Shown here: positions 14,456 to 42,462 of the stretch, one piece after another
How the letters are laid out: each line of letters starts with the position of its first letter
Position numbering within the stretch: position 1 is the stretch's first letter
Source of the DNA: an uncultured Mucilaginibacter sp.
GTDB taxonomy: Bacteria > Bacteroidota > Bacteroidia > Sphingobacteriales > Sphingobacteriaceae
Assembly (NCBI GenBank): GCA_964277815.1
Contig: CAXYKR010000343.1
Coordinates: 1,611-65,610 of the forward strand
Length of the DNA stretch: 64,000 nucleotides
Direction: 5' to 3'
Program-made: the position numbers and the translations under genes
Notes under the pieces: generated by a model
The model's database searches: none
What the model was told of the DNA's origin: nothing
What the model saw: the letters and a program-made list of their open reading frames with translations, nothing else

Positions 14456-14465
14456 AATGTCTGAA

Positions 14466-15113: not shown

Positions 15114-15125
15114 AATCCGTGAATA

Positions 15126-16488: not shown

Positions 16489-16541
16489 AAGAAATCACTT
16501 TCCGATTATTTATCAGATTAAAAAAGGCAAGAAATGAAGTG

Positions 16542-16910
16542 CTATTTTATTTTCTTGTATTCGGAATCGCCAAGTTTAACGCCGTTATGGTCGGTAATGT
16601 AAACCTGCTTTCCAAGGTCAGTTTGCTGTAGTACTTTTGATTCTATATTGTAAGTGGCATCCCATTTGGCCGACTTAAATTCCTTGCTTTTTAAAACGCC
16701 GTTTCTAATTTTTTGAAAACCAGATTTTCGTTCAATGTTATATGCCTGGTTAGAAGAACTGATAGTTCTAATAATAAGTGTATCGTCTGTAAGCGAATAT
16801 TCATTCTTGAAATGGGTTACATAGGTTCCGGATGGGTCTGACTCTTTAGCGGTATCTGAGCATCCGTAGATGATAATCGATACAAACAATAGAATGATTA
16901 ATGCTTTCAT
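16542..16910 (-). CDS. small lipoprotein
   Basis: MKALIILLFVSIIIYGCSD, a lipobox-like Cys after a hydrophobic signal. 122 aa. Confidence 0.6.
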   Translation of the reverse strand: MKALIILLFVSIIIYGCSDTAKESDPSGTYVTHFKNEYSLTDDTLIIRTISSSNQAYNIERKSGFQKIRNGVLKSKEFKSAKWDATYNIESKVLQQTDLGKQVYITDHNGVKLGDSEYKKIK

Positions 16911-16925
16911 AATTATATAATTTAG

Positions 16926-19415: not shown

Positions 19416-19753
19416 GATCTTCTTTTTAATTGCAGAAATACGTTTCGTGTTGTGAATTGCAGGTAACGCGGTAGGTATCGCTTAGCTGATCTCTTCATCA
19501 GCCCATACTGACCGTACTTGTGACTGAGCTTAAAAACTTGATAAAAAAGCAAGCTCCCCAATGCGCCTATGATGATCAGGCACATGGTCACCGGTACGCT
19601 AAACAGGTACATAACAGCAAAGCCGATGAGCAAAATAACGAGGCCTGCTGCTAGATAGCCAATGTACTGGGCCTTCAGCCCTTTAAATTCGATGGGCTTA
19701 TTGATACCCTTGTTGATGTGATACAGTGCCATAAACATGCTATTAAACGCCAA
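19412..19753 (-). CDS. traF: DUF4133-like small membrane protein (TraF position)
   Basis: 113 aa, two TM segments. 4-nt overlap with the traG start. Motif INKGINKPIEFKGLKAQYI. Confidence 0.65.
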   Translation of the reverse strand: MAFNSMFMALYHINKGINKPIEFKGLKAQYIGYLAAGLVILLIGFAVMYLFSVPVTMCLIIIGALGSLLFYQVFKLSHKYGQYGLMKRSAKRYLPRYLQFTTRNVFLQLKRRS

Positions 19754-20081
19754 AGAATGATTTGAGCACCGTAGCTACCACTACTAAGAAGATACAGCTT
19801 CCGAACCAGCTGGATGCCACCTTACCGGTATCATGCTCGCCATCATTCCACTTCTTGTAAACCTTAATAGCACCTACCAGGCCGACTAAAGCCCCAATGG
19901 CATACATTAAAGTGGTACCAGTGGTAAAGTAGCTTTTGACCTGCGTAGTTGCCTCCTGAATACCGGCATTACCGTCCTGTGCATACAAGGTGAAGGCGAA
20001 AAGGATAAATGCCAATGTGCCAAAGCATTTCTTCAACAGATGCCTCAGATCGTTATTTCTTTTTACTTGCTGTGTTTTCAT
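19743..20081 (-). CDS. traE: DUF4134-like small membrane protein (TraE position)
   Basis: 112 aa. Signal/TM, then ...GTTLMYAIGALVGLVGAIKVYKKWNDGEHDTGK..., typical of the TraE-like pilin-candidate family. Confidence 0.65.
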   Translation of the reverse strand: MKTQQVKRNNDLRHLLKKCFGTLAFILFAFTLYAQDGNAGIQEATTQVKSYFTTGTTLMYAIGALVGLVGAIKVYKKWNDGEHDTGKVASSWFGSCIFLVVVATVLKSFFGV

Positions 20082-20112
20082 GATTATTTATTTTAAAGGG
20101 TTTAAAAAAATG

Positions 20113-20646
20113 TTACTCGTTCAAGGCAGGCAGGTCATTGCTTATCAAGTCGAAAGGCAACTTTCCGTGCGATTCGTTCAAGATATGCTCAGTTACCTGT
20201 AGATAGTTTATTTGCGACTCGTATGGTTTATAAGAGGTAAGCAGAATGTTCAGCAATGAAATAAATTCTGATTTACTGTCAACGTCTGCGAAAGCATCAA
20301 TGAGTTTGTCCGTCTCATTAAGCAGTTGTGTTTGTGGCAAAAACTCAACGGGCTTTGCTGCTGTTGATTCAGCAACTGGTTCGTTTAAGTCTTCGTCGAT
20401 GTCGGCTTCCGCAAATTGTAACTCTTCGTCGGCTACGACGGTAATGCTTTGATCTTGCTTAGCTTGACCCATCACCGCAAAAGATGAAAGGGTGCTGGTT
20501 GGGGCAAGTAGCTGACCTGATTGCTTAGCTATAAAAAGATTGGTAATCTCGCGTTGATAGTAGCGAAGGATCACATACAGGTAGTAAGATGCGCTTATGA
20601 TAGCGATGGCTGCAAAATACTGCTGCCAGGAGATGGATGACAACAT
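20113..20646 (-). CDS. hypothetical protein with N-terminal TM and an acidic C-terminal region
   Basis: 177-aa ORF, first gene downstream of conserved motif copy A. TM segment FAAIAIISASYYLYVIL. Confidence 0.55.
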   Translation of the reverse strand: MLSSISWQQYFAAIAIISASYYLYVILRYYQREITNLFIAKQSGQLLAPTSTLSSFAVMGQAKQDQSITVVADEELQFAEADIDEDLNEPVAESTAAKPVEFLPQTQLLNETDKLIDAFADVDSKSEFISLLNILLTSYKPYESQINYLQVTEHILNESHGKLPFDLISNDLPALNE

Positions 20647-20720
20647 AACACTTTGATTTTAAAGACCATCTGCACCATGCAGCGATCTCGAAAGCAAAGG
20701 TTGGCCTATCCAAAAAACTT

Positions 20721-20746
20721 TTATCACACCTCATGTACAAGGTAGG
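20721..20746 (-). promoter_or_regulatory. conserved ICE motif, copy A (hairpin-containing, upstream of the tra operon)
   Basis: ttatcacacctcatgtacaaggtagg. 25 of 26 nt match copy B (26232-26257). It is outside the duplicated segment that explains copies B and C. Confidence 0.45.
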
Positions 20747-20790
20747 ATAAATTTTTTATAACATATTGAAAAACAAGTAGTTGAAAATGG

Positions 20791-21657
20791 CTATAATTTT
20801 AGCTTTTGCTGAATTGAGCCATCTTCATCCAATTTTTGATCCATTTTACGGAGTAAGGCAAGCTTTAACTTATCAAGTAATATGGTGCGATCCTTTTTTC
20901 GCCGCGTCATATCGGTGTATTTGTGATAGTACTGGCCAAGTTCGATATGAAAAACCGTTTGAAAAAAGCTAACAACCGTTTTGATCTCCGCATTGCCATT
21001 ATTAAATACGCCGGCAGCAACCAGCGCATAAATCAGTTCGATCAGATCGGTCTTTGAAAATGTCCAGGTGAGCGGAAGTTCGAGGCTCATCTCTGGCGGG
21101 CGCTCATCATGATTATTGAGCTTTTGAAGTTCAATATTTAAAAAGTCCTGGTATTTTTCGTTCGCGATAATATTCGAAAGCTTGTAGTCGTGGCTGGTTG
21201 AGTATACCTCATCCTCTTCAAATTTTTCCAGTTCCACATGTACATCAAACCCACCACGAGTAAAATACACCTCATCCATTTGGGTGGAACCTGAGCGGTA
21301 GTATTGATAAAAAGCGGCGTTATGATCGAAATAACGTTTAAGATCGGCCAGTTCAGAGTTGATATATTCTTTTAAATGATCATCGGCTCCTGTCGGCCTT
21401 TTCATTAGGTAATTATAGACGCTGATGAAGTAAATGTATTTACTGTAGAATTGAGGTTTTACTTCCTTAAAGAAATGGATCTCGTCTTCGACACTTTCAA
21501 AAGAATAGCTGGAGATGTAGCTTTTCAGCTTGGCCATTGCTTTTTTGCAAAGGATGATAGAAGCTTTGTATTGTTCGGCTAAAGGTTCGCCGTTTGTGGA
21601 AATTTCGTTTAATTGATTTTCTAAAGCGCTGTAGTAACGCTCGGTGATGGTACGCAT
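20791..21657 (-). CDS. RteC-like regulatory protein (tentative)
   Basis: 288 aa. Size, helical N-terminus and position between the coupling protein and the tra operon resemble RteC-domain proteins of Bacteroidota ICEs. Call from memory. Confidence 0.45.
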   Translation of the reverse strand: MRTITERYYSALENQLNEISTNGEPLAEQYKASIILCKKAMAKLKSYISSYSFESVEDEIHFFKEVKPQFYSKYIYFISVYNYLMKRPTGADDHLKEYINSELADLKRYFDHNAAFYQYYRSGSTQMDEVYFTRGGFDVHVELEKFEEDEVYSTSHDYKLSNIIANEKYQDFLNIELQKLNNHDERPPEMSLELPLTWTFSKTDLIELIYALVAAGVFNNGNAEIKTVVSFFQTVFHIELGQYYHKYTDMTRRKKDRTILLDKLKLALLRKMDQKLDEDGSIQQKLKL

Positions 21658-21785
21658 ATGGATTTGGATTAGGTAATTAGGATTATTGCTTAATACGCAA
21701 AATAAGAATAACGTGTTACGACAAGCTATTCGTTTAACTTCACCTTAAATCAATATTACGTTAATATGACGATCACCATTATTAC

Positions 21786-23720
21786 TTAAGAGTTAACTAC
21801 GACGTCTTGAACAATAGCCTTTATGTCATTTTTGATCTGCTGGTAATTACGCAGGACTTCCGCCTGATCAATATCTCGAACGGTGGGGATAGGTTGATAA
21901 TTCAACTCCTCGTTGCGAATACTGTCGTGGTCATTTTGAATCTCATTATGGAATACTTTTAAGCTGATCTTATTGGTAGGGTCGTCGGCTACCATGCCCA
22001 CAAATTCACCCGAAGATAGTCCTGCAATTTTGGAAGCGGGTATCGCAAAGTCCAGTTGAGTAGAGCGGCTCACCGAGGTATCCTGGCTGTTGATGGATAC
22101 ACTTTCTTTTTGTTGGTTAATTTTTCCGAAGCGTTCTGACAACTGTTTGGCTGTATCGCCTGTTACCTGCCCGCAAATAATATTACCTACGATATTCATA
22201 ATAACCTCTGCCTGATCACGACCATAATCCTTTTTAAGCTGGCTATAGTCCTGAACCGCCAATGTCACCGCTACCTTATTTGACCTTGCTGTAGCGATAA
22301 GGTTGTCTATGCCATTGAAGTAAATAGTTGGGAACTCATCGAAGATCATGCTGCATTTCTGGCGGTTCTTTTGGTTGACCAGCTTGTTAATGCGGTTGAT
22401 ATACAAGGACAGCACAGCACCGTTCACCTGTGATTTTTGCGGATTGTTGGCAAGGCAGACGATCTTCGGTTCATCAGGATTATTTATGTCTAGAGAGAAA
22501 TCATTGCCACTTAACACATAATAAAGCTGCGGTGATGATAGCCGCGCCAAACTGATTTTAGCGCTTGCCACCTGACCTTCTAACTGTTCATAGGCTTCAT
22601 TCTGCCAGGCAGAAATAAAAGGATTGATCAATACCTCGATTTCAGATTCCTGTAGCAATACTTCAAACAATTCCTTGTAATCCACCTGAGCTAACTCAAT
22701 AACATGCGGTAAAGTACAAAAGCGGCCATCTTGGTACTTTCGCAGAAACCACATGATCGCTGTGATAAAGTTGATCGGTGATTCCACAAAAAAGTCTCCC
22801 TGCTTTTTGATCCATTCCCGATTTAAACCCAACATAATCGTTCGGCTGGCGTCAATAGCATCTGTTATATCCAGCATGGTTTCTGGCTCCAGTGGATTCG
22901 CGCGGTGCATGATCTGTTCGAGGTTAATCACATACTGGGTCGGTTTGACCTTGTACAAGTGACCATGTTGAAGCAAGGCGTTATAGGCGATCTTGGTTAG
23001 GTCATCATACTTAAAATCATAGATCAGCATGGAAAAACCTTTTTGAATATGTTGGGTGATAATGTGGCGGATAACAAAGTAAGATTTACCTGAACCCGGA
23101 CTGCCACCTATCAATGTGCCACGGAAAGGGTTGATGATATTGATCCAGCTTTTACGCGCTTTACCTTTTAGGTGGTAGATAGCAGGCAAGTTAATCGAAT
23201 ACTCATTTTCAAGGTACCGCTCTTCCTGTGGAAATGATTCGTTGGCCTTGTTAAAAATGTCATCAGCCAGCTTCAATTTGAGCATTCTGAACAGGGCACT
23301 TAGTCCTGACAAGATCAGTAGATACCCTAACGAGGTTATGCCGATATAAAGTGATGCCCTGATTGATACCGGATAGTTGACGTGGAGGAATACTGCACTG
23401 ATAAAGTATAACAGCAAGCCAGTCAAGGCATAGGTAGTGATTGTTTTAAAATTAATCTTCTCATCTTTCTTTCCCTTGCTGCCTAACAAGGAAATCATCA
23501 AAGCGCACAGTGCTGCAAGTTTTGCATATAGTACACTTTTGAAGACTGTCATTTTTGAGACAGACAGTAGAATACTGTTAATAACCGGCTTTGCCAATCC
23601 CCAATTCTGAAATGCGGCATAGCAGGAGATATAAAAATGAAGGATAAGAATTGCCAGGCTGATAAACCGGGTAAAATCAATGATCCTTCTTAAAGCTTGT
23701 TCGTTTTCACCTGTTTGCAT
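21786..23720 (-). CDS. type IV coupling protein (TraD/TraG/VirD4 family)
   Basis: 644 aa. N-terminal TM helices, Walker A LIGGSPGSGKSYFV, Walker B-like MIFDEFP. Confidence 0.85.
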   Translation of the reverse strand: MQTGENEQALRRIIDFTRFISLAILILHFYISCYAAFQNWGLAKPVINSILLSVSKMTVFKSVLYAKLAALCALMISLLGSKGKKDEKINFKTITTYALTGLLLYFISAVFLHVNYPVSIRASLYIGITSLGYLLILSGLSALFRMLKLKLADDIFNKANESFPQEERYLENEYSINLPAIYHLKGKARKSWINIINPFRGTLIGGSPGSGKSYFVIRHIITQHIQKGFSMLIYDFKYDDLTKIAYNALLQHGHLYKVKPTQYVINLEQIMHRANPLEPETMLDITDAIDASRTIMLGLNREWIKKQGDFFVESPINFITAIMWFLRKYQDGRFCTLPHVIELAQVDYKELFEVLLQESEIEVLINPFISAWQNEAYEQLEGQVASAKISLARLSSPQLYYVLSGNDFSLDINNPDEPKIVCLANNPQKSQVNGAVLSLYINRINKLVNQKNRQKCSMIFDEFPTIYFNGIDNLIATARSNKVAVTLAVQDYSQLKKDYGRDQAEVIMNIVGNIICGQVTGDTAKQLSERFGKINQQKESVSINSQDTSVSRSTQLDFAIPASKIAGLSSGEFVGMVADDPTNKISLKVFHNEIQNDHDSIRNEELNYQPIPTVRDIDQAEVLRNYQQIKNDIKAIVQDVVVNS

Positions 23721-23731
23721 AACCGTAAAAT

Positions 23732-24985
23732 TTAAAGTGAATGTCCTCTGCGTTTTTTCTTGCGCTTTCTTTGCTGTAGCCTGCCGATGGCTGCCATATC
23801 TTGTTTTTCCTCCTGGTATAAGGCTTCTAGGAATGCACTGCCACCGTTGAAGTTGTTATTACCGTTTATTCCTGTGTTATCAGGCAAATGTTTATTGCCG
23901 TATAGATCAACGTTATGGCTTGGTCTAATGCCTCCTTCTGATCGTGCAAAGAATTGTGAAAGGCTGTTTGCGCTATAGATTTTGCCTAAATCACTGCCGT
24001 TGAACACAGCTTTAGTTTTATGATCGACAAAGGTCACCCCATATAACCGGCCATCCTCACTGTGCCTAAAAATGGCTTCAATATTCTGTTCCTTAACCTT
24101 TAACTGAAACTCGGTTTTACCAATCGGTTTGTTCAGCAGATCTTCAATCGCCTGCTTTACCTGCTCTTTTAGTGATTTCCGTAGCACCTCATTTAAAGCA
24201 AAGCGTCCTTCCAACGTTTTTAACGTTGGTTTACCGTAGATACTGCTGGCCTTGATAGGAACGCCGATCTTGCCACCTTTACCATCCAGTGCCCAGTATA
24301 CCAACCCGTTTTTCTCATACATTCTGGATTCTTTTGAACCCCGGTCAGCCGTCACGTTAAAGCCGTTCAGAACCGCGTTGAATTCCGGGATACTGGTAAA
24401 CTTGTATGTTCGCAATACCTCACTTACGACATTAGTGATGGCACGTTTGGTTTCGGATTTCCCGTAAGCTACTTGTTCCAGGGAAAGTGATTTTACATTA
24501 TACTGTGCTTTACCCTGATCCTCTGCCTTGACTAACCCGTGGTTTAGTTCTACTTGTTTTCTCGACTGCTCTGACGCTTTATTGGCCAGCAAATGAAAAC
24601 TGATCCGTTCACCATCCGGCTTGATGTTGGTGGACACCAAATGCAGGTGTGGATGGCCAGCATCGTAATGCTGGTAGACAAGGTAAGGCTGCTTACCAAA
24701 CCCTAAGCCTTCCATATAGTCATCCGCAATTTGCTGAAGTGTCCATTTGTCCAAATTTTCACCAACTGCAAAGTTTAACGACACGTGCAAGGCATTGACC
24801 TGCGTGCGTTCATTCCGTTTAGTCAGGTCAGATAACCGGTTCACCTTATCGCTGAATGAGAGGTCAAACGGCTCCTTTAAATAACCCTGTGCCAGGATCA
24901 ATTCGGCCTTCCCTAAGCGCACCTTATGCTCGTTATAATTTATTGCTCCTAGGACGCTTCGTCCGGTTTTAATTTTTGCGACCAT
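23732..24985 (-). CDS. relaxase / mobilisation nuclease
   Basis: MVAKIKTGRSVLGAINYNEHKV... with His cluster YQHYDAGHPHLHLVSTNI, typical of the relaxase/mobilisation nuclease domain. Confidence 0.85.
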   Translation of the reverse strand: MVAKIKTGRSVLGAINYNEHKVRLGKAELILAQGYLKEPFDLSFSDKVNRLSDLTKRNERTQVNALHVSLNFAVGENLDKWTLQQIADDYMEGLGFGKQPYLVYQHYDAGHPHLHLVSTNIKPDGERISFHLLANKASEQSRKQVELNHGLVKAEDQGKAQYNVKSLSLEQVAYGKSETKRAITNVVSEVLRTYKFTSIPEFNAVLNGFNVTADRGSKESRMYEKNGLVYWALDGKGGKIGVPIKASSIYGKPTLKTLEGRFALNEVLRKSLKEQVKQAIEDLLNKPIGKTEFQLKVKEQNIEAIFRHSEDGRLYGVTFVDHKTKAVFNGSDLGKIYSANSLSQFFARSEGGIRPSHNVDLYGNKHLPDNTGINGNNNFNGGSAFLEALYQEEKQDMAAIGRLQQRKRKKKRRGHSL

Positions 24986-25362
24986 AGTTCTGAAAAGTTT
25001 TGCATGCAGTCTTTGATCTGGACGATGGCCGGGTCAACCTTGGTGCCGATGATCGACATAAGCGACAGCCATAAACGGTTATCTGCGGAACCATGCGCTG
25101 CGTTGATTTGACGGACTGCCTGGTTCAAATTGTTACCAATGGCGTTGAGTTCCCGGCGCAGCAAAGACAGCTCTTCAAGCATCTCATCCATGGACTTGTC
25201 CCGGTAATTTACGGTGATCGGTTTCTCCAGCAAGACGCATCTGATGTACTCGCTCATCTTGCGGAAGCGAGTCTTTTTAAACCGCCTGTCGATCAGTAAA
25301 TATTCACCGGGTTTAAACCTCGTGGTAATCTTTCGTAACCTGTTTTCTTCTTCATTTTCCAT
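24949..25362 (-). CDS. MobC/BfmA-type relaxosome accessory protein
   Basis: 137 aa. ITTRFKPGEYLLIDRRF (RHH-like) and LNAIGNNLNQAVRQIN motifs. Overlaps the relaxase start by 37 nt. Confidence 0.7.
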   Translation of the reverse strand: MENEEENRLRKITTRFKPGEYLLIDRRFKKTRFRKMSEYIRCVLLEKPITVNYRDKSMDEMLEELSLLRRELNAIGNNLNQAVRQINAAHGSADNRLWLSLMSIIGTKVDPAIVQIKDCMQNFSELWSQKLKPDEAS

Positions 25363-26231: not shown

Positions 26232-26260
26232 TTATCACACCTCATGTACGAGGTAGGGTA
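26232..26260 (-). promoter_or_regulatory. conserved ICE motif, copy B (upstream of the HTH/mob operon)
   Basis: ttatcacacctcatgtacgaggtagggta containing the IR acctc-atgtac-gaggt. 47 nt upstream of the ATG at 26185. Confidence 0.45.
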
Positions 26261-26403: not shown

Positions 26404-28371
26404 TTAAAACAGACTGGCTTGTTCGCCCGATCCTGTTTGAAGATTTTGATAGTTCTTAATTAATTTCAGAATAGTTTGTCCGTAGTTGTTCGCTTTTACT
26501 GACCCGACGCCTTTGATCGCACCAAGTGCTTTCAGAGTAGACGGCAATTTTGAGGCAATGGTGTTTATGGTTTGATCACTTAGGATCATAGAAGGCATAA
26601 CTTTTTCGGAAATAGCAACATCCTTACGCCAAATAATCAAGTTTTTAACCAACGGCTCATTTGGATGGGCGCTGACGGCATTGCTGAATTCTTTAAAGGA
26701 ACCCCTCTCTTTCCGCTTTTGAGATAGATAGTCATTCGTGGAAAATTCATGCTTTGCGAAAAATGCCATGTGTTCCGATTTTTGGATCAATTTATCCATG
26801 ATACCGTCGGCTTTCAAGGCTTGTGCTTTCGATTCGGTCGTTTTTTGCAGGATGGCTTGTATGCCTGGCACTGCTTTTATTAAATGCTCATGAAAATAGC
26901 TGGCGGCTTTTTGTATTCGGTCTGAGGAGTAATTCGGTAACTCGGAGCGCATTTTTTCCGCCACTTCAAAAATACTATTGTTGATAAGTAACAAGGCATC
27001 TGAGTATTTTTCTAATTGAGCGTTAAAAGCAGAAAAACTATATAGTTCTTGTAAAAGAAACTTTCGATAGACTTCTTGATCAGTTTTTAGAGTTTGGTCG
27101 CTGGGTGTAAGCTTTGCTGCTTTGCTATCAAAATCTTTGACATAAGGGTCAGCAATGATGTTTGCTTTTGTAACGACATTTTTAAGTACTAAACCTTCCA
27201 ATGTGCGGCAGCGGCTTAGTGCAACGTAGGCTTGGCCTGGTGCAAATGCTTCGCTGACATCGATGATGGCTTTGTCGAACGTCAGCCCTTGACTTTTATG
27301 AACAGTTATCGCCCATGCCAGTTTGAGTGGAATTTGTGTAAAACTTCCCGCGGTGGTTTCGCCGATTTGGTTATCCTCCAAGCTATATTTAACGTTTGAC
27401 CATTCTATCGCCTGCACTTCGATTTCTCGATCATCGCATCGTACACGCACGGAATCCTTAGTTAGAGCTACGACTTGGCCAATCTTGCCATTAAAATAGA
27501 GTTTTGAAGCGGAGGTATCGTTTTTAAGAAACATAACCTGCGCGCCAGGTTTGAGTTGCAGTTTTATATCTGCCGGGTGCGCATCAGGCGGGAACTCTCC
27601 CCGTATCGTTGCATGATATTCAGTTAGTTCGCCACTCAGTGCATTCAACTTGTTTTCATTGATCCCTTGTACAATCCGGTTGTGAGTAGTTAGGACGATA
27701 TGATCCGATAATTGTGTCGTTTCTGGTTGATAGCGCCGATTGAGTATTGACAGAGTTTCATCGTTGATTTGCTGTGTTCTAACTTGATTAAGTATTTCGA
27801 TAAATAGGGGATCGTTTTGGCGAAACACTTCGGTTAATTCGATACGGACGAACCCCGCTTTTTGTAAAGCTTTCGCGCTAAAAAAATAAGGAGTATTATA
27901 ATAGTTGCGGAGTACGGACCATTCTTCATCACGTATGATAGGACTTAATTGAGAGAGATCGCCGATAAGCAAGAGCTGAACGCCGCCAAATGGATGATCG
28001 TTTTGTTTGATGTTCCTTAAGATTAAATCAACGCGATCAATAACATCGGGCCGCACCATACTGATCTCGTCGATTATCAATAGCTCCAAAGCCAGAAAGA
28101 GGTCACGCTTTTCAGGGGCAAAATGGATATCTGGGCGCTCGTTTGTATTCGGCAACAAAGGCCCAAAGGATAATTGGAATAATGAATGAATAGTCATACC
28201 ACCAGCATTGATCGCCGCAACCCCGGTTGGTGCTACGACAGCCAGTTTTTTTGGCGAACTTTGCCGTACCTTACGTAAGAAAGTGGTTTTTCCGGTGCCT
28301 GCTTTACCCGTTAAAAATAAGATACGGTTGGTATCGTGGATATAATTATCGGCAAGTTGCAGTAAGTTCAT
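26404..28371 (-). CDS. Pif1/RecD-type SF1B helicase with a C-terminal HRDC-like domain
   Basis: Preferred start MNLLQLADNY (ATGA overlap with the upstream stop, 28368-28371). Walker A LTGKAGTGKTTFL, motif II LLIIDEISMV, HKSQGLTFD, ALSRCRTLEGL. C-terminus LSDQTINTIASKLPSTLKALGAIKGVGSVKANNYGQ is HRDC-like. Confidence 0.8.
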   Translation of the reverse strand: MNLLQLADNYIHDTNRILFLTGKAGTGKTTFLRKVRQSSPKKLAVVAPTGVAAINAGGMTIHSLFQLSFGPLLPNTNERPDIHFAPEKRDLFLALELLIIDEISMVRPDVIDRVDLILRNIKQNDHPFGGVQLLLIGDLSQLSPIIRDEEWSVLRNYYNTPYFFSAKALQKAGFVRIELTEVFRQNDPLFIEILNQVRTQQINDETLSILNRRYQPETTQLSDHIVLTTHNRIVQGINENKLNALSGELTEYHATIRGEFPPDAHPADIKLQLKPGAQVMFLKNDTSASKLYFNGKIGQVVALTKDSVRVRCDDREIEVQAIEWSNVKYSLEDNQIGETTAGSFTQIPLKLAWAITVHKSQGLTFDKAIIDVSEAFAPGQAYVALSRCRTLEGLVLKNVVTKANIIADPYVKDFDSKAAKLTPSDQTLKTDQEVYRKFLLQELYSFSAFNAQLEKYSDALLLINNSIFEVAEKMRSELPNYSSDRIQKAASYFHEHLIKAVPGIQAILQKTTESKAQALKADGIMDKLIQKSEHMAFFAKHEFSTNDYLSQKRKERGSFKEFSNAVSAHPNEPLVKNLIIWRKDVAISEKVMPSMILSDQTINTIASKLPSTLKALGAIKGVGSVKANNYGQTILKLIKNYQNLQTGSGEQASLF

Positions 28372-29492
28372 GTTAATGGAGAAAGGATATGACTCACGGC
28401 TTGTTTTTCCCAATTTTTGTAGTTGGCTGGGTCTCGTTCAAATTGTTGCCATGCTGTATGCATTAAACTGATCCAACTGGAGGGGTCGCCAACGTAATCA
28501 GAGAATTTGATCGGATTGGCTTCTGTTAACATATCATCCAGAGCCTGGGTTACGTCCGAAGCCCATTTGTTCTCATAAAAACCATAGTAATCTGCGGGTG
28601 CTGCCAAAGCTTTTGCGATGGTTTGCCATTCCTTTTCGAGTTTATCAGCTTCCTGGTGCAAGCCTAACTGTCGACACCTGCTTGCGATAAAAGTAATACG
28701 TAAATAGGTGACCGGATGACTGCTATTAAACAGGTCTTTCTCGGTACGGTAAAATGCGGAGCGTCCTTGCATACGTAGGTAAAAGCTAAAAGCACGGACA
28801 TAAGTTGAGCCACCGATCTCTACGCCTACAGCATCACAAAACAGTTCCTGAAGCCAGTCATACCAAGTTTCAACCATTTGGCGGGCTCTTTCCGTGTCGG
28901 CTTCGGAATCTGCGTCATTTTTGCGAACTGCTGGCATCAGGTAGCCGTTCAGCTTTTTCTGAAATTCCCGCACAAGGTCATCCATTTCAGCGCGGTGATG
29001 CTGGTATAAGTAATGACCGAGCTCGTGAAAGAATAACGGCATGTACAATAAACTTTGCTGAGCCGCTATCGGTAGATAATAGCTAACTGGAAAATCAACG
29101 GTCGGGTAGATCGCAAAGTCACCGTCTAATACCAAAAATGGTTTTTGTATAGTTTGCGAATGAGCACCATGGAGCCAGTGCAGCAGTTTCAAGGTGATGG
29201 CATCATTACGATGCGTTCTGTACAAACCTGGCAGGTATCTGCCATCCAGTACTCGGAATGTCTGTTGCAGGCTCGAAAACTCGTTGAAGATATCGACGTA
29301 GATACTTTCCTCCCCTAAATCTGTCAAGAATGCCAGGCGCTGTAAGGTAGTGCGAATATCCGTATAAAAAGAGGATAACCAAGCCTGGAAAAGTCCAAGT
29401 TCAGCGGGAACGCTTTTTGCAGACACAATACCAATAGTGGCATCAAGTTCTCGCACAAAGTCGTTGATGGAATCGGTTAATATTTTTTTCAT
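28368..29492 (-). CDS. zincin-like protein with a HELGH motif (possibly ImmA/IrrE M78-like)
   Basis: 374 aa. Single HExxH at LFFHELGHYLYQHH. The start codon shares 1 nt with the upstream stop (29492) and the stop overlaps the helicase ATG. The rest is unrecognised. Confidence 0.55.
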   Translation of the reverse strand: MKKILTDSINDFVRELDATIGIVSAKSVPAELGLFQAWLSSFYTDIRTTLQRLAFLTDLGEESIYVDIFNEFSSLQQTFRVLDGRYLPGLYRTHRNDAITLKLLHWLHGAHSQTIQKPFLVLDGDFAIYPTVDFPVSYYLPIAAQQSLLYMPLFFHELGHYLYQHHRAEMDDLVREFQKKLNGYLMPAVRKNDADSEADTERARQMVETWYDWLQELFCDAVGVEIGGSTYVRAFSFYLRMQGRSAFYRTEKDLFNSSHPVTYLRITFIASRCRQLGLHQEADKLEKEWQTIAKALAAPADYYGFYENKWASDVTQALDDMLTEANPIKFSDYVGDPSSWISLMHTAWQQFERDPANYKNWEKQAVSHILSPLT

Positions 29493-29941
29493 TAAAGTTC
29501 GCCAAGAAGTTCGCGGGTGTCAGAAGATAAGTGATCTTCAAGCAGCGCCCTAAATTCCGTTAATGAGTCAATTAATTTAGGCATGTCTTCGCTGCTTGGC
29601 GCGTCTATCATGAGCAACACCGTATTTGGTTCTTTTCTAAACAAGGCAGACTTATAGCGGCTGCTGCGACTTTTAGCTTCCGCAAATTTACGCACCAAAT
29701 TGCGGTACCGACCGTCTACGCCAGTCAAAGCGCTGCCGTCCTGATCGGCGGTACCGACCAGGGTGCTTAATTTGCTTAAAAAAGCTTTGACGATTTGCTT
29801 AGCTTTTTGGATATCTTCTATAGGCTGCTGATCGTTGATGCCTTTTTGGGCAAGTTTCAAATGAATTAATAATTTATTAAGCCTTTCCAGGATGCTTTGT
29901 CCTCGTTCAAAACTTTGAATGGCCAGTTGCTTCGTTTCCAT
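29492..29941 (-). CDS. hypothetical helical protein (149 aa)
   Basis: ATG 8 nt after the pAgo stop. No family recognised. Composition looks predominantly helical. Confidence 0.55.
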   Translation of the reverse strand: METKQLAIQSFERGQSILERLNKLLIHLKLAQKGINDQQPIEDIQKAKQIVKAFLSKLSTLVGTADQDGSALTGVDGRYRNLVRKFAEAKSRSSRYKSALFRKEPNTVLLMIDAPSSEDMPKLIDSLTEFRALLEDHLSSDTRELLGEL

Positions 29942-29949: not shown

Positions 29950-32259
29950 TTATTTGATGCGTTGAACTTCTTGACCCGCTTTATCTTGTAACTCGTCATC
30001 AGCCCGTTTAGCACAATAGGTGAGCCTTTGCGCTACAGACGGGCTGGCAAAGTTCATTTGGGTGGTGACGAATATGTCTTGTAATACGTTCTTTAAATTC
30101 GCCTGCGTGTATTTGTTTTTAATCAATAATGGCGACGCGGTGCCTTGATGCAAGGTTCCCTGTCCGGTGGCCGCCAGTACTACGGTACTGCTGTCAATCA
30201 TAAGCCAACTACCTTCCAGGGCATTATGGACCGTGTTGTTTTCCCGTTCCCATATCCTGACTTCTTTTAAAGTAGATTTACGGTATTCAACAAAATCGAA
30301 AGTTAAGTCGGTGGGGAACACGCCTTCGGCTTTAAGTTCCGCAATAGCTTCCTGTATAGCTTTAAACTCTTGATCGCAATCTTTACCATCCCGAAGCACT
30401 AACAATGATTTTAAACCATTATCCTTCACCGTGTCTTTATGCAGTTGAAAAAGCTCTTTAAAATGTTTTTTCAAAAAGACGGGATTTATCGTTTCGAGCG
30501 CCTTTGGGTCCGTTTTTCTTTTGACTTTTACATCCGAATTGGGAACATCCATCTGCTGACCATAAACCAACAATGATAGGGCCAAATGGGTGTGTCGGCT
30601 GCTAACGTCAATCATCAAGTGCATATCGTAATTCAGTTTGGTATCCGGTACAAAGAGCAGGCACCCTAATTGCTCCAGAACATCGTAAGTAATCAGATCA
30701 ACATAAGCGTTCCAGTTACGTTCACCGTTGGGATTCCGGCCGTCCTTGAAATTACTGTAACCGCGATATTTGCGTCGTAATTCCTGTTCGGTTAATCTTT
30801 TGACTTTCCAATCGGGTAAATTATGACGGATTAAATAATAGTTGGCAGATTCGTTATTATCAAAAGTAAAAACCACCATTCCGGCTTTGCGATAATTCTT
30901 TTTCAGGTCTATGGTAGCTTGTTCCTGACTCGCGAAGCCATCGACGACCGCCTGCACATTAATGCTGGTTAGTTTGGTGATTTTTTCGCAAACATCATTG
31001 GAAAGTTTTTCTTGTATTTTGGTGTCTATGCTTTGTGGGAACTGAAAGTGAATATCCCTGGTCATACCCGGCGGTACATAGAAACAGCCACATTCATCCA
31101 GCATTTTTTTTCGGTTGCGAAAATGCTCCTTGTAAAGCCGGGTGGTTTGTGCCACAGGTTTCGGCAATAAAAGGTTCCCCCCAAAGCGGAGGCCAGTCAT
31201 TTGCAACGTACCACAACGACCAGGACCAGGCGCAAAAAAACCATTTTTTATACCTGCAAAATGAACACCAAATGGTTTTTGGCCAAATTCAGCCCAAAGC
31301 TTTGTTAACAATTCTTCGCGCAGTGGCGGTTCGATTTTATCCACCTGACTCATCTCATGATCCAACGCTTCGTTAGTTACACGCAAATACAGCCGGTTGG
31401 CGGGTACCGGTACCGGTGCATTGTCTTCCGTTCCCGGAAAAGAAACCATGGCAACGCGATCATTGGCATTAACTCCAAAATTCGGGTAGCTTTTTTGGTA
31501 ATAGTCCCAAGTGTTTTGATAGGTGACCCCATTGATCTTTAACCTACGCGTCGTTGCTAAAGTAGTATCATCCAGATATTTGGTGAAATAACATTTTACA
31601 CGACCGTTCGGGCCATCGTAATATAAGGTGCCTTTGTTTTCACCGTAACGGCCCGAGAGGGTATAAAAGCGTTTTCTCAGATTCATCGAAAAGTAATCGT
31701 CGACGGACATACCTGTAAAGAAAGCAGTACCGACATTGATCGCCAAGCCCAAACCTTCTTTTTCCAGTATCACCTCTGCTACCTCATATTTTCGGTAAGC
31801 TTCAATATCGGCCACGTGTTCCGAACCATTCAAAAAATCGTTTTTAAGGAAGGGTACTTGGGCGTAAAATATGCGAGGGCTATCCAATCGCCAATAGTCC
31901 GGTTTAGCTGCAAATTTCAAAAGCAATGCTTTTTTGTAAAGATCGGCGAGTAATTGAGCTTGATTCGGATCACTCAGCGTCAGGGCAAAATTCCCTTCGA
32001 TAGGTTTTAATTCGATCAGCCAGTTATCCACTTCAAAGTCCTTACGCGGAATCCGGTCATGACATTCGATCAGGATACCTCTAACCTGGTTGTTTTGCAT
32101 ATAAGGCACAGCTGGAATACCAAAGCTTTTGCCAATATACGTACACAGCCGCTGGGCTTTTTCTTTAACTAATTCGTCGGTGTCCAGTTCGTAGCGGCGC
32201 ACAAATAGTTTAAGCTGCGTTCCGTGCAATACTAATTTGATGTTCGTTTCTTTACTCAT
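29950..32259 (-). CDS. long prokaryotic Argonaute (PIWI-domain protein), probably catalytically inactive
   Basis: Preferred start MSKETNIKL (cat at 32257-32259), 769 aa. PIWI-like blocks HLMIDVSS, ALET, LLVLRDGKD, QGTASPLLI, RLTYCAKRADD. Ala sits at the position of the 4th catalytic D/H when aligned to the HYADK / YAHL blocks. Confidence 0.7.
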   Translation of the reverse strand: MSKETNIKLVLHGTQLKLFVRRYELDTDELVKEKAQRLCTYIGKSFGIPAVPYMQNNQVRGILIECHDRIPRKDFEVDNWLIELKPIEGNFALTLSDPNQAQLLADLYKKALLLKFAAKPDYWRLDSPRIFYAQVPFLKNDFLNGSEHVADIEAYRKYEVAEVILEKEGLGLAINVGTAFFTGMSVDDYFSMNLRKRFYTLSGRYGENKGTLYYDGPNGRVKCYFTKYLDDTTLATTRRLKINGVTYQNTWDYYQKSYPNFGVNANDRVAMVSFPGTEDNAPVPVPANRLYLRVTNEALDHEMSQVDKIEPPLREELLTKLWAEFGQKPFGVHFAGIKNGFFAPGPGRCGTLQMTGLRFGGNLLLPKPVAQTTRLYKEHFRNRKKMLDECGCFYVPPGMTRDIHFQFPQSIDTKIQEKLSNDVCEKITKLTSINVQAVVDGFASQEQATIDLKKNYRKAGMVVFTFDNNESANYYLIRHNLPDWKVKRLTEQELRRKYRGYSNFKDGRNPNGERNWNAYVDLITYDVLEQLGCLLFVPDTKLNYDMHLMIDVSSRHTHLALSLLVYGQQMDVPNSDVKVKRKTDPKALETINPVFLKKHFKELFQLHKDTVKDNGLKSLLVLRDGKDCDQEFKAIQEAIAELKAEGVFPTDLTFDFVEYRKSTLKEVRIWERENNTVHNALEGSWLMIDSSTVVLAATGQGTLHQGTASPLLIKNKYTQANLKNVLQDIFVTTQMNFASPSVAQRLTYCAKRADDELQDKAGQEVQRIK

Positions 32260-32263: not shown

Positions 32264-33226
32264 TTACGCTTTAGTACATATTTCCAGGAATGCGCATTGT
32301 GCGCAAACCTTTGCTTGATTACAGGCGGTAAAGGCTTCCACCAGGCCATCAGCACCAAATTCTTCCATTTCTGTTAATAGCTCGATATCCTGTAAGATAC
32401 GGGCCTTTGCTCTTTTCAGTTCCTGGCCTGAAAAAAGTAAAGGCTCTAATATGCCATCCTGCAAAAACGCCTTATACAACCTGATCGAAGCTAAGGGTAT
32501 CTCCATTTGCTCGTGTGCCCATAAGGCGTAAGTCAACAATTGCAAACTACTCTCTTCCGAGTCATTTTGGCCGGTCTTCCAGTCCGCGATCACCCAACCC
32601 TCAGCATCCGGGAACATTAAGTCGATCGCACCATCAATCATGGCGCCCTCGTAATTAAGTAAAATCTTCTTCTCGATCAGGCTTTCCAACCGCAAGGCCC
32701 CTTCGCGTAGTTTAGCAAATTCGCAGCTCAGATAAAACTGCTCCAAGCTTAGCCGCATTTTATCCCGCAGATTATTGCGCAGCAGTTCCGTTTCAACAGT
32801 GCCATAAAATAACTCCTGGATGATCGCCGGTGCTCGGTATTCATATTCCCTTATAGCACCGGCAACAACTTCAGTTGAATGCTTGAAAGCATCGTCCAAT
32901 AATTTATTGGCAAAACTGATCATATGCGGGAGCGTCCAAACGACCTCTTTTTTAGCATTATTGAAGTAGGCACTGATCACCCGGTGAACAACTTCTCCAG
33001 CCACCAATACACCGGTCGATAAGTGTTTTAAGAACTGTATCCGGTCTTTGTGCAATTCTACATCCGCTTTGCGTTTACTGCCGCCAAAATATTGGTAATA
33101 TCCCATCCGCGGGCAAGTGCCAAAAGTATTCAAGCGTGAAAACGACCAACGCAACTTAGTCACTTTCACGACGGCTTTACCCGTGGCCGCTACTATTGAA
33201 TTACCAAAAAGATCGGTTTGTTCCAT
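32264..33226 (-). CDS. Cas4/RecB-like PD-(D/E)xK nuclease with a 4-Cys cluster
   Basis: FGTCPRMGYY (N-terminal Cys), IDGAIDLMF, VIADWKTG (D-x-K), QLLTYALW (QxxxY), C-terminal CNQAKVCAQCAFLEIC. Start at MEQTDLF (33226), or at the alternative ATG 33271. Confidence 0.75.
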   Translation of the reverse strand: MEQTDLFGNSIVAATGKAVVKVTKLRWSFSRLNTFGTCPRMGYYQYFGGSKRKADVELHKDRIQFLKHLSTGVLVAGEVVHRVISAYFNNAKKEVVWTLPHMISFANKLLDDAFKHSTEVVAGAIREYEYRAPAIIQELFYGTVETELLRNNLRDKMRLSLEQFYLSCEFAKLREGALRLESLIEKKILLNYEGAMIDGAIDLMFPDAEGWVIADWKTGQNDSEESSLQLLTYALWAHEQMEIPLASIRLYKAFLQDGILEPLLFSGQELKRAKARILQDIELLTEMEEFGADGLVEAFTACNQAKVCAQCAFLEICTKA

Positions 33227-33231: not shown

Positions 33232-33573
33232 TTACCTCAATCGTTTTAAGTTCGTCATTAAACGATCCCATTCATGATCAGTCAGCCGCATATTAGCGAC
33301 CTCATTCATAAATTTGATCGCAGATGGACTGGATGCAATGGCACCACTCATTTCTCCCGTGATCTTTCCTGACTTGGAGAGCAAAACCTCGGTTGAAACC
33401 CCTAATACATCGCAAATCTTCTGGATGGTTTCCGCAGCTGGCGGTGCCATCCGGTCATTCTCGACTTTGCTGATATAAGAAAAATCAATACCAACCTGAT
33501 CAGCCAAATCTCTTTGGCTGATCCCCTTTTCGCGCCTGATAGCTTTTAATGTTTGTCCAAAAGTCTGATCCAT
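33232..33573 (-). CDS. XRE-family HTH regulator heading the pAgo operon
   Basis: MDQTFGQTLKAIRREKGISQRDLADQVGIDFSYISKVENDRMAPP. The track start 33612 is TTG. The ATG at 33573 gives a typical XRE N-terminus. Confidence 0.75.
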   Translation of the reverse strand: MDQTFGQTLKAIRREKGISQRDLADQVGIDFSYISKVENDRMAPPAAETIQKICDVLGVSTEVLLSKSGKITGEMSGAIASSPSAIKFMNEVANMRLTDHEWDRLMTNLKRLR

Positions 33574-33576: not shown

Positions 33577-33607
33577 CAAATATAAGAATGTTGAGTTGAA
33601 TCTCAAC
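33577..33607 (-). promoter_or_regulatory. -7 promoter box plus inverted-repeat operator candidate for the pAgo operon
   Basis: Minus-strand TATATTTG (plus caaatata, 33577-33584) is a perfect TAnnTTTG only 4 nt from the ATG. IR gttgag-ttgaat-ctcaac lies at 33590-33607. Confidence 0.4.
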
Positions 33608-33773
33608 ACCAACTTTGGAAAATTATTTCAATAAATTTTATGGTAAAATATTTCAAAGAATTGCTAATTGCTTTCAAGGTCAGCGGTTTAAAGAGGTGAA
33701 TGAATTAGAGTCAAAACTTATAAGCTGAATAATATTTACTATAATTGAACACATAAACCTTATTTAATTAACT

Positions 33774-34895
33774 ATGGAAGAGCTTATTGCAAGTATCGCA
33801 ACAACGCTGAAAGATTACCGAGAAGATGAAGATAACACTTCAGTTCAAGTAAGCGAAGATCACATTACGGAATGGATAGCGCAATTTGAAGAAGAACTAC
33901 AAGTTCCTATTCTGACGGAGTTGAACAATATCTTCAAAAAACGATACTGTTCTAAGAAGAATTTGCGGCGATTTTTAGAATTACTCATTGAGGCCCTTAC
34001 TAAAGATTCTGGTTTGTCTTCCGAGGTAGATTTTTTAAAAAATGCTCAATTTCTAAGCCTGCAAGGACATGGGAAAAGTCAAACTATCATTCTTGAAATA
34101 CTGAAGGAAGTAATTTTTGATAAATATGATTTTTCATTTGACAAATGTGGTGCCTCATCACGTAAATATTCGATTTATATAGATGACGTACTTTGTTCGG
34201 GGCTTACCTTAATTTCAAATATCCAAGAATGGTCAAAATCTGAATTTGAAAATGGCAAAACAAATAAGCAGGCTGTGGAAGACGGATCAACAAAACTTTT
34301 CCTGAATTATATTTTTGTACATGAAAAGAACTTCGATAAGAAATTATATGAGATGGAAAAAAGAATTTCAGCCAAATTTTCCGCAAAAATCAAATCCTAT
34401 CATATGCATGAGATTCAGAATACGCTGATACCAACTTCAAAAGTTGATCTTATATTTCCTAACAGTGTGGAACAACCTGAGAATGTCGAGCAGTACCGGG
34501 CGGAAATAATAGAAACGGTTGATGCTTACAGTAAAGAGAAAGGTTATAAAACTAGCGCCGAAGAATTTTTTCGTCCAAATAAATTGCCGAAAGACGAAAA
34601 ATTCTTTACCAGTCCTGAGAATAGAAAGCTCGTCGAGGATGCTTTTTTGCAAAAGGGAATAGAGATACTTGGAAAGGCAAATGTTAACAATAAAAACATG
34701 CGGGCATTGGGTTATTCAATGCCATCGGTAAAAAGCTTCGGTTTCGGAGCGCTTTGTTTTACCTGGCGGAATGTGCCGAACAATACTCCGCTTGTATTTT
34801 GGTACGCTGGTGGTGGTTTTACGCCGTTATTTAAAGTGTCAAGGGGAAATAATTCAGCGTTTAATTTTACATTTGATTTTAGTGCGGAAGAATAG
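33774..34895 (+). CDS. phosphoribosyltransferase (PRTase)-like protein
   Basis: 373 aa. RKYSIYIDDVLCSGLTLISNI matches the PRPP-binding loop of type I PRTases (hydrophobic run-DD-hh-x-SG-x-T). The N- and C-terminal regions are unrecognised. Confidence 0.6.
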   Translation: MEELIASIATTLKDYREDEDNTSVQVSEDHITEWIAQFEEELQVPILTELNNIFKKRYCSKKNLRRFLELLIEALTKDSGLSSEVDFLKNAQFLSLQGHGKSQTIILEILKEVIFDKYDFSFDKCGASSRKYSIYIDDVLCSGLTLISNIQEWSKSEFENGKTNKQAVEDGSTKLFLNYIFVHEKNFDKKLYEMEKRISAKFSAKIKSYHMHEIQNTLIPTSKVDLIFPNSVEQPENVEQYRAEIIETVDAYSKEKGYKTSAEEFFRPNKLPKDEKFFTSPENRKLVEDAFLQKGIEILGKANVNNKNMRALGYSMPSVKSFGFGALCFTWRNVPNNTPLVFWYAGGGFTPLFKVSRGNNSAFNFTFDFSAEE

Positions 34896-34907
34896 TATGC
34901 TCAAGTG

Positions 34908-35693
34908 ATGGTGCCTACAAAAAAATACGAAAGTAAAATTTACAAAGCGTCGGAATGCTGTGTTTTCAGGAAGACGAAGGAAGGTTATGGCGCGCTTTCT
35001 AATATGGCGGCGGGCTTTCCATTGCGTATTAATGGAATCTCTGTAAAATCCACGGAGGCATTGTACCAGGTATGTCGATTTCCACATATGCCGGAAGTTC
35101 AGGAAAGGATACTATATGAAAAGAGTCCAATGACGGCAAAAATGGTGGGGAAACCTTTCCGGGAAATGACCAGGCCAGATTGGGAGGAAGAAAGGGTAAA
35201 AATTATGCGGTGGTGCCTTCGTGTCAAACTCGCTCAAAATTTTTGGTCTTTTGGGAAAGTACTGGAATGTACATTTAATAAGCAAATCGTTGAGGAAAGT
35301 AGTAAGGACCCTTTTTGGGGTGCTATACCTGACAAATATGAAAAGGACTGCCTAAAAGGCGTGAATGCTCTTGGAAGATTACTGATGGAACTGCGGCAGA
35401 CCTATAATGAAAAGCGTTATCTTGCTGATCTTTTTTACATTGAACCATTAAAAATACCTGATTTTAAGTTGTTGGGGAGCGAAATTAGTGTGGTTGATGA
35501 ACGTGCAAATTTTGTGAGTTATATCCAACACTCTCTTGGAATAAACAGCCCAACGCTGCTAAACGAACAGAAATCCGAAGTTGAGATTACAAAATCTTCG
35601 ACGACAACACCAGCCAAGCCGCAAAAGAAAAGCGGACTTACGAAAACGGCACGTAGCAAATCCAACGGTGAACAGAGTAGTTTATCATTATAA
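34908..35693 (+). CDS. NADAR (YbiA/DUF1768) family protein with a C-terminal extension
   Basis: ATG at 34908 (the track start 34905 is GTG). Blocks GALSNMAAGFPLRINGISVKSTEALYQVCRF, WEEERVKIMRWCLRVKLAQN, DPFWGA, GVNALGRLLMELR. An extra tail of about 90 aa follows. Confidence 0.75.
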   Translation: MVPTKKYESKIYKASECCVFRKTKEGYGALSNMAAGFPLRINGISVKSTEALYQVCRFPHMPEVQERILYEKSPMTAKMVGKPFREMTRPDWEEERVKIMRWCLRVKLAQNFWSFGKVLECTFNKQIVEESSKDPFWGAIPDKYEKDCLKGVNALGRLLMELRQTYNEKRYLADLFYIEPLKIPDFKLLGSEISVVDERANFVSYIQHSLGINSPTLLNEQKSEVEITKSSTTTPAKPQKKSGLTKTARSKSNGEQSSLSL

Positions 35694-39730: not shown

Positions 39731-39731
39731 T

Positions 39732-40499: not shown

Positions 40500-40502
40500 T
40501 AA

Positions 40503-42446: not shown

Positions 42447-42462
42447 CCGCAGGGCTCAATCT

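Follow-up and report, generated by a model that had tools for sequence, protein, structure and literature searches.

A Small Helical Protein and a Zincin-Like Protein as Conserved Partners of a Prokaryotic Argonaute-Nuclease Operon

The Locus and Its Genes

A group of six neighbouring genes, among them a prokaryotic Argonaute (pAgo), is contained in a stretch of 64,000 nucleotides (nt) from an uncultured Mucilaginibacter sp. (contig CAXYKR010000343.1, positions 1,611 to 65,610), which as a whole is called the window in the following. All six genes are located on the minus strand. The first encodes a helix-turn-helix (HTH) regulator of the XRE family (33232..33573, 113 amino acids (aa)), the second a Cas4-family PD-(D/E)XK nuclease (32264..33226, about 320 aa), and the third a long pAgo of 769 aa with an intact DEDD tetrad (29950..32259). 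These are followed by an orphan helical-bundle protein of 149 aa, termed P149 here (29492..29941, ATG at 29941), by the gene directly downstream of it for an orphan gluzincin-like protein of 374 aa, termed ZIN (28368..29492, ATG at 29492), and by a Pif1/SF1B helicase of 655 aa with a C-terminal HRDC domain (26404..28371, internal ATG at 28371), which is a lineage-specific sixth gene. P149 and ZIN are conserved partners of the pAgo-nuclease operon in many bacterial phyla and some archaea.

The original prediction, made from the letters of the DNA alone, had placed three close-packed minus-strand genes after the pAgo, and all three junctions were confirmed in the DNA. The stop codon of the pAgo ends at 29950 and leaves a gap of 8 nt to the ATG of P149, P149 and ZIN overlap by one nucleotide in a TAATG, and ZIN and the helicase share an ATGA overlap. 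The starts of the three upstream genes were chosen by homology support, which places the ATG of XRE downstream of the TTG at 33612 given in the list of open reading frames (ORFs), the ATG of the nuclease (33226) 5 nt past the stop of XRE, and the ATG of the pAgo (32259) 4 nt past the stop of the nuclease. With these junctions of 4-5 nt the six window genes from XRE to the helicase look like one operon, as had been proposed. Consensus scans of the operon interior yielded no terminator or promoter signal above shuffle expectation that would separate the extra genes from the others, the sigma-70 promoter model used there being the wrong model for Bacteroidota; a motif scan for the Bacteroidetes -7 motif TAnnTTTG found no enrichment inside the operon, and the sole intergenic copy in the operon region is located just 5' of XRE. 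Approximately 150 nt past the helicase stop a palindromic hairpin (26239..26254), followed by a T-rich stretch on the minus strand, is by its consensus match alone a candidate operon terminator.

The Bacteroidetes-type -7 box TATATTTG (33577..33584, minus strand) ends 3 nt 5' of the XRE ATG. Between it and the expected -33 position lies the palindrome TGTTGAGATTCAACTCAACA (33589..33608, minus strand), which was also flagged as a 9-bp stem in the hairpin scan. Over the 60 nt leading up to the ATG of XRE the sequence is strongly conserved in 11 Bacteroidota cassettes, while the DNA further upstream is unrelated. The elements in these 11 cassettes follow the order TGTTGA-N-TCAAC-TCAACA, -7 box TAnnTTTG, ATG, the box being kept in most of the aligned loci. 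Judged by this pattern, the palindrome looks like a candidate operator for XRE overlapping the promoter, and the operon transcript would be leaderless or nearly so. The regulator itself matches Pfam HTH_3 (2.5e-16) and, with its HTH part only, the PADLOC models HTH_VI (4e-15) and capH (9e-12). Its homologues are 113 aa long, and the C-terminal region is conserved as well (K83, A98, F101, L110, and E114-W115 in 68 sequences).

The Zincin-Like Protein and P149

The zincin motif FFHELGHYLYQHH is found at residues 154-166 of ZIN. In an alignment of 31 homologues, the residues H156, E157, H160, E216, C219, D220, and H259 proved to be invariant, and the HExxH is kept in all 70 full-length ZIN proteins irrespective of the type of cassette they come from. 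An AlphaFold2 (AF2) model with a predicted local distance difference test score (pLDDT) of 93.3 consists of an N-terminal four-helix bundle followed by the HExxH...W..ELFCD core. The description of the 374-aa protein as one with a zincin motif as its only recognisable feature was accurate, and four family libraries (Pfam, NCBIfam, PADLOC, and PHROGs) assign no family to it beyond a sub-threshold match to Pfam M48 (PF01435, 20.1 bits at a cut-off of 20.3), a match found for 4 of 31 family members. A search of the ZIN profile against PDB sequences gave no meaningful match, and the model found no match in the PDB at E<=0.001 with Foldseek. Against BFVD, Foldseek returned weak zincin-like matches only, namely the AR9 zincin (probability 0.84) and a Pithovirus M48 protein. 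None of the 31 ZIN family members matched Pfam M78, nor was there a PADLOC match or a fold match in the PDB. Membership of ZIN in the CapP/ImmA/IrrE (M78) family was therefore rejected, as neither sequence nor fold gave an M78 signal.

P149 is predicted by AF2 to be an all-helical bundle (pLDDT 85.7), in agreement with its earlier description as a helical protein. It has no family in Pfam, NCBIfam, PADLOC, or PHROGs, and Foldseek matches its model to designed proteins and generic helical bundles only. Profile comparison detected no homology to the N-terminal bundle of ZIN (probability 1.7%).

Conservation of the Gene Order

One genome per species was scanned with the ZIN profile. This gave 80 loci with ZIN, representing more than ten phyla, and 77 evaluable ones after exclusion of three loci cut by contig ends. 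The six window proteins were searched against all ORFs of the 80 loci. A pAgo gene or remnant is located directly upstream in 60 of the 77, in phyla including Bacteroidota, Planctomycetota, Chloroflexota, Acidobacteriota, and Poribacteria, and the full order XRE, nuclease, pAgo, P149, ZIN is found in about 56 of these 60 pAgo-bearing loci. P149 adjoins ZIN in 77 of 78 evaluable loci, with its stop within -4 to +3 nt of the ZIN start wherever this start is defined. ZIN is the usual last gene of the cassette; the DNA beyond it is variable and often has its genes on the opposite strand. Such conservation of the gene order across phyla excludes a chance adjacency of the extra genes, and the proposed link of P149 and ZIN to the pAgo-nuclease pair has held, the layout being kept even at about 20% ZIN identity. 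The complete five-gene cassette occurs also in the cultured isolates Mucilaginibacter celer and Dehalococcoides mccartyi.

The remaining loci have neither nuclease nor pAgo. Thirteen of the 77 consist of XRE, P149, and ZIN only, and four of P149 and ZIN without XRE. In a neighbour-joining tree of ZIN, calculated without support values, the triads are scattered in several places among the five-gene forms. These reduced forms raise the question whether XRE, P149, and ZIN constitute an autonomous toxin-antitoxin or abortive-infection module, with a protease as toxin, a helical inhibitor, and a repressor, which shares its promoter with the nuclease and pAgo, so that two defence modules would be stacked in one operon. 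That triads and pairs outlive the loss of nuclease and pAgo in several lineages, and that P149 and ZIN are the most invariant pair and translationally coupled, would suit such a module. Three-component modules of an XRE regulator, a zincin, and a toxin were reportedly predicted by Makarova et al. in 2009. On the other hand, all sampled contexts of the ZIN superfamily are either the pAgo cassette or its form lacking nuclease and pAgo, with no other cargo, P149 and ZIN keep their place behind the pAgo even in groups which share only about 20% identity, and PADLOC has no model for P149 or ZIN. An autonomous module is, on balance, improbable.

Three kinds of deviating loci were observed in the survey. 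In three cassettes the pAgo is interrupted or degraded, by a split through insertion or by fragmentation, and ZIN is intact (L030 5575-9492, L046 9259-9411, and L058 7114-9533); these may be stages towards the triads lacking pAgo. In loci of the Blastocatellia type the triad is divergent from the gene for a 1224-aa protein in which an N6-methylase is fused to a SNF2/ResIII helicase (L028 3952-7626, minus strand, with equivalents in L027, L029, L032, and L035); this fusion may be another partner of the triad or cargo under its regulation. Finally, a contig binned as a Nitrososphaeraceae archaeon (L006) carries the full five-gene cassette and groups with Bacteroidota and Ignavibacteriales in the ZIN tree, reflecting either horizontal transfer or a mis-binned contig.

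Sister Groups

An exhaustive profile search yielded 1724 representatives of the ZIN family at E<=1e-3. These include two subfamilies, ZIN-A with the window-like proteins and ZIN-B with the P0108-like ones, which have about 21-25% identity to the window ZIN. In the sampled ZIN-B loci, contigs of sufficient length show the order HTH, PDDEXK nuclease, pAgo (about 790-806 aa), a 119-125-aa protein, and ZIN. This layout is complete in three loci (L087, L171, and L174), and three more (L172, L088, and L089) end at contig borders and agree over the genes present. L174 is the plasmid pRUNSL03 of Runella slithyformis, and its pAgo (WP_013921749.1) is the published RslAgo, an enzyme with known biochemistry.

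Further relatives were found on other plasmids. A Spirosoma plasmid (L176) has a sigma-70 factor, a 181-aa protein, a nuclease, an 829-aa pAgo, a 132-aa protein, and a ZIN-like gene, an operon which matches the published sigma-70-associated operon of the PnyAgo type. A cyanobacterial plasmid carries a nuclease, a pAgo, a 145-aa protein, and a ZIN-like gene with no regulator. Two haloarchaeal plasmids (L175 1-8870 and L177 1-9828) encode an AddB-like nuclease and a UvrD helicase-nuclease of the AddA-like kind, followed by a small protein and a ZIN-like protein; a pAgo of 731-737 aa, annotated as hypothetical, is convergent with the genes for the small and the ZIN-like protein, and there is no regulator among the annotated features. 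These plasmids represent an archaeal form of the theme with a helicase-nuclease. In all seven ZIN-like proteins examined from these sister groups, the HExxH is followed by W..E[LFI]xCD 43-64 residues downstream. The small proteins are treated as positional analogues of P149 only, as profile comparison with P149 gave no significant result (probability 4.8%). The window pAgo had no match on plasmids at 1e-8 in a tblastn search.

This diversity of regulators bears on a second explanation, in which P149 and ZIN are direct accessories of the nucleic acid pathway. The protease would clear proteins which obstruct the ends of invader DNA or inhibit the system, for instance end-protecting, terminal, or anti-defence proteins, or it would serve in the maturation or recycling of the nuclease or the pAgo. 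In either case guides could then be generated by the nuclease, alone or together with a helicase. The block of nuclease, pAgo, small protein, and ZIN is kept under an XRE regulator, a sigma-70 factor, or no regulator at all, the haloarchaeal pair of small protein and ZIN-like protein follows an AddAB-like helicase-nuclease and is convergent with the pAgo, and a helicase has joined the Bacteroidota cassette, perhaps more than once. These points would favour a direct role. The 13 triads and four pairs, however, persist without nuclease and pAgo in several clades, with the HExxH intact, which would not be expected of a pair serving the pAgo pathway only, and ZIN has no recognisable DNA-binding domain. 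We consider the direct accessory role somewhat unlikely.

Argonaute and Nuclease

The pAgo matches the PADLOC model pAgo_II (5e-29), and its best relatives with a solved structure are VbAgo (4e-19), MbpAgo (9WMD), and PliAgo (7R8F), all three of which are DNA-guided RNA-cleaving enzymes. The original prediction had called the pAgo inactive. In the numbering of its 802-aa ORF, however, D584, E622, D657, and D787 align to the tetrad D550, E584, D617, and D756 of VbAgo, which has been validated by mutation, and the residues of this complete DEDD set are kept in 50-52 of 52 cassette pAgos. Going by this alignment, the window pAgo is very probably catalytically competent and the designation as inactive wrong. 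Its nearest solved relatives suggest that it would target RNA with DNA guides. In the MID region, whose 5'-end pocket is non-canonical in the PliAgo-type group, the residues Y507, K520, R521, and W549 of the window pAgo are conserved and do not fit a simple Y-x3-K pattern at the sequence level.

The nuclease matches Pfam PDDEXK_1 (1.8e-18) and the PADLOC model Aga_Cas4-like_Nuc (1.4e-16), and its homologues have a length of 312-321 aa. C53, C323, C326, C332, D217, D230-W-K232, and Q244..Y248 are kept in 49-50 of 50 homologues, and this set of cysteines, D-DxK, and QxxxY is the signature of the Cas4 family.

The Helicase

The classification of the 655-aa protein as a Pif1/RecD-type SF1B helicase with an HRDC tail is borne out by matches to Pfam PIF1 (5e-28) and HRDC (1e-15). 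It also matches a Dda-like helicase in PHROGs (2e-72) and, below the cut-off, NCBIfam RecD2 (5e-21). The position 3' of ZIN is the same in the window and in L001, L083/L084, L085, and L086, loci with 76-79% ZIN identity and unrelated flanks, and L083-L086 show directly that the helicase gene overlaps the ZIN stop. In three other loci, L004, L082, and L087 of the ZIN-B type, the helicase gene is instead found upstream of XRE, outside of the operator and promoter. Mucilaginibacter celer (L081, CP032869) has lost the helicase from an otherwise intact cassette, as shown by a 62-aa ORF after ZIN (11236-11436), a remnant left by deletion which matches the C-terminus of the window helicase (1e-14).

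Among the 80 species-level loci the helicase is present in L001 and L004 only, and among all sampled loci in L001, L004, and L082-L087; it is absent from the remaining Bacteroidota loci and from every other phylum in the 80-locus survey. Looked at from the other side, none of the 80 closest helicase relatives on metagenome contigs (37-55% identity) has cassette genes nearby, and two stand-alone helicases are closer to the window helicase than are those of L004, L082, and L087. Because of these stand-alone relatives and the variable position, the helicase is regarded as a local recruit from a family which is mostly stand-alone, perhaps recruited more than once, and this recruitment suggests a functional fit with the cassette. 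The survey for co-occurrence with PIWI genes gave a divided answer. P149 and ZIN are found mostly with a pAgo, while none of the 80 closest metagenomic relatives of the helicase is near a cassette gene, so that the refuting condition named in the original prediction applies to the helicase.

With these results the model originally proposed can be judged, a six-gene system in which the pAgo is inactive, helicase and nuclease process invader DNA, and all three extra genes are integral parts. In its favour, tight coupling of all six genes is seen in the window and again in five close relatives whose flanks differ, and a cooperation of the helicase with a Cas4-like nuclease is mechanistically sensible. 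Yet the tetrad of the pAgo is intact and conserved, and the helicase, being confined to a subset of Bacteroidota, found in two positions, reduced to a remnant in M. celer, and having none of its 80 closest metagenomic relatives near a cassette, is not an integral component. The six-gene model is accordingly very improbable.

Possible Mode of Action

The data show the linkage of the genes, their order, the conserved residues of catalytic type, and the conserved candidate operator; the mode of action is inferred. The reading preferred here, to which we assign a probability of about 0.4, concerns the widespread operon, to which a helicase is added in some Bacteroidota: XRE would repress it, the nuclease would make guides, the pAgo would cut RNA, and P149 and ZIN would form a module for proteolytic control or signalling. 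XRE would repress the operon from the palindromic candidate operator overlapping the promoter, as suggested by the conservation of this DNA. From invader DNA the Cas4-like nuclease would make small DNA guides, a step modelled on published work on ACE1 and on DNA-guided RNA-targeting (D-R) pAgos, and where an SF1B helicase is present it may unwind DNA ends and supply single-stranded DNA to the nuclease. The pAgo would then cut complementary transcripts of the invader. As the weakest step, P149 and ZIN are predicted to be a two-protein metalloprotease module which may signal by proteolysis; the most likely substrate of ZIN would be the transcription factor of the operon or P149, and its cleavage would lead to de-repression or to a downstream response. 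The sensor or regulator role first suggested for P149 and ZIN remains plausible.

Three considerations favour proteolytic control. Most of the operon types examined are headed by a transcription factor, an XRE-type HTH protein in the ZIN-A and ZIN-B operons and a sigma-70 factor in the single locus of the PnyAgo type (L176); XRE, P149, and ZIN persist alone in 13 loci; and zincins which cleave a cognate repressor recur in nature. CapP, a zincin which cleaves its cognate XRE repressor CapH, is a precedent, and ImmA/ImmR, IrrE/DdrO, and BlaR1/BlaI are further ones.

Several points weigh against this proteolytic control. ZIN has no detectable relation to CapP, ImmA, or IrrE by Pfam M78, PADLOC, or fold. 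The type of the regulator differs among the sister groups, the cyanobacterial locus has none, and the annotated features of the haloarchaeal loci include none, a pattern which links ZIN more strongly with nuclease and pAgo than with XRE. Four loci keep P149 and ZIN without XRE, and no obvious regulated cargo follows ZIN in the triad loci. The contacts between P149 and ZIN and between XRE and ZIN are proposed only, and the targeting of RNA is extrapolated from relatives at about 20-30% identity.

Relation to Known Systems

The core of regulator, nuclease, and pAgo has been published before. Lisitskaya et al. 2022 (PMC9360449) name a Cas4-like nuclease in pAgo operons, combined there either with a regulator of the HTH type or with a sigma-70 factor, report the same gene composition within each group of D-R pAgos (PliAgo and RslAgo with HTH, PnyAgo and MbpAgo with sigma-70), and propose that the nuclease makes guides or degrades targets. 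Genes for HTH proteins near pAgos are mentioned by Ryazansky 2018 and Song 2023 (PMC10620215). The operons of PMC9360449 have, like the window, the Cas4-like PD-(D/E)XK nuclease before the pAgo and the HTH regulator at the head, and the RslAgo locus on pRUNSL03 has the same five-gene layout with a ZIN-like gene at the end. The two downstream genes are neither described nor interpreted in the text of that paper as far as available, and its Fig. 1b may draw both of them unlabelled; nor was a protease-like, small helical, or Pif1 component of pAgo operons found described elsewhere in the literature searched. The suggestion of a possibly undescribed system is thus supported for P149 and ZIN, within these limits, and not for the core. 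Differences to the published operons exist as well, since the window pAgo is far from RslAgo (28% identity over the PIWI end) and distant also from VbAgo, and the published operons do not include the Pif1-HRDC helicase of the window.

In the APACE systems a long-A pAgo is combined with a pAgo-associated Cas4 enzyme, ACE1 or ACE2, and the ACE2 systems are uncharacterised (PMC12094033). ACE2 shares with the window nuclease the D-DxK triad, one N-terminal and three C-terminal cysteines, and a similar length (average 313 aa), a comparison limited to residues and length, and the APACE pAgo keeps its tetrad as does the window pAgo. No protease, small helical protein, XRE regulator, or helicase is described for APACE (PMC12094033). 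The ACE1 systems, in contrast to the window, consist of two genes, are cyanobacterial, and target DNA, and ACE1 threads single-stranded DNA without a helicase (PMC12094033).

In the long-B systems BPAN, BPAS, and BPAM (PMC10620215), a pAgo is likewise encoded together with a PD-(D/E)XK nuclease, and a gene for an HTH protein is shown close by. Long-B pAgos have lost the tetrad and activate a toxic effector (PMC10620215), whereas the window pAgo has an intact tetrad and a nuclease of the Cas4 type with the cysteine set for an Fe-S cluster. With its intact and conserved tetrad the window pAgo is not a member of the long-B/BPAN group.

In CapH/CapP and, by extension, in ImmR/ImmA and DdrO/IrrE, an immune or mobile-element operon is turned on when a zincin cleaves its XRE repressor. 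The resemblance to CapH/CapP lies in the combination of an XRE-family repressor and an HExxH protein in one defence operon, in the match of the window XRE HTH to the PADLOC capH model (9e-12), and in the conserved candidate operator over the promoter. ZIN, however, has no detectable kinship to CapP, ImmA, or IrrE in sequence or fold, ZIN is set off from XRE by 1-3 genes and has P149 as an obligate extra partner, and sister ZIN operons use a sigma factor or no regulator.

In the Craspase of type III-E CRISPR systems, an RNA-guided effector which targets RNA is accompanied by a protease and its small substrate and by a sigma factor. To this the cassette bears a functional analogy only, as a guided RNA-targeting nuclease with a protease, a small protein, and a transcription factor, and there is no homology: the protease of Craspase is the caspase-like TPR-CHAT, that of the window is zincin-like, the guides would be DNA, and an activation of ZIN by the pAgo is hypothetical. 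In such an Argonaute-coupled protease switch, guided recognition of the RNA of an invader by the pAgo or processing of DNA by the nuclease would activate ZIN, which would cleave P149 or the transcription factor and trigger a transcriptional or abortive response; we regard this as unlikely at present. The transcription factor in question would be XRE here and an anti-sigma/sigma pair in the sister group. If true, the switch would be a counterpart of Craspase built from unrelated proteins.

The interest of these findings extends beyond the window. DNA-guided RNA-cleaving pAgos such as PliAgo, RslAgo, MbpAgo, and VbAgo are under development as RNA tools, and their natural function is still debated in the literature (PMC9360449). 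In their operons, as in the related ones of many phyla and of haloarchaea, there are two more conserved genes. Neither has a family in four libraries, and one of them encodes a protease-like protein with an invariant HExxH…ELFCD site. Since the full cassette is present in cultured organisms, namely in Runella slithyformis DSM 19594 on pRUNSL03, in M. celer, and in D. mccartyi, the role of this class of pAgo in vivo and a possible part of proteolysis in Argonaute immunity are accessible to direct tests. That helicases have been recruited repeatedly, of the Pif1-HRDC type in Bacteroidota and of the AddA-like type in haloarchaea, bears on the making of DNA guides.

Genomic Surroundings

The pAgo cassette belongs to the cargo region of a CTnDOT-like conjugative element and is located there among other defence genes, which fits a role in defence and a horizontal spread. 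The backbone of the element (11026-25362, minus strand) includes TraM, TraJ, TraG, RteC, a coupling protein of the YWFCY type, a relaxase, and a MobC/NikA-like protein. A HEPN-domain protein is encoded at 6520-7719. Divergent from XRE, on the plus strand (33774-35693), are genes for a PRTase-CE protein (Pfam 6e-44) and then a NADAR-domain protein (1e-23), a candidate defence pair with weak PADLOC matches to PRTase_III-A and PDC-M42C. The region from 36539 to 50455 is a defence island of low GC content (about 0.36) with an HKD-SNF2 helicase, a DUF4391 protein, and Mod and Res of a type III restriction-modification system; it contains in addition a Kiwa pair, formed by a KwaA-like membrane protein (45655-46221) and KwaB (46279-47103), a GHKL ATPase, and a tyrosine integrase.

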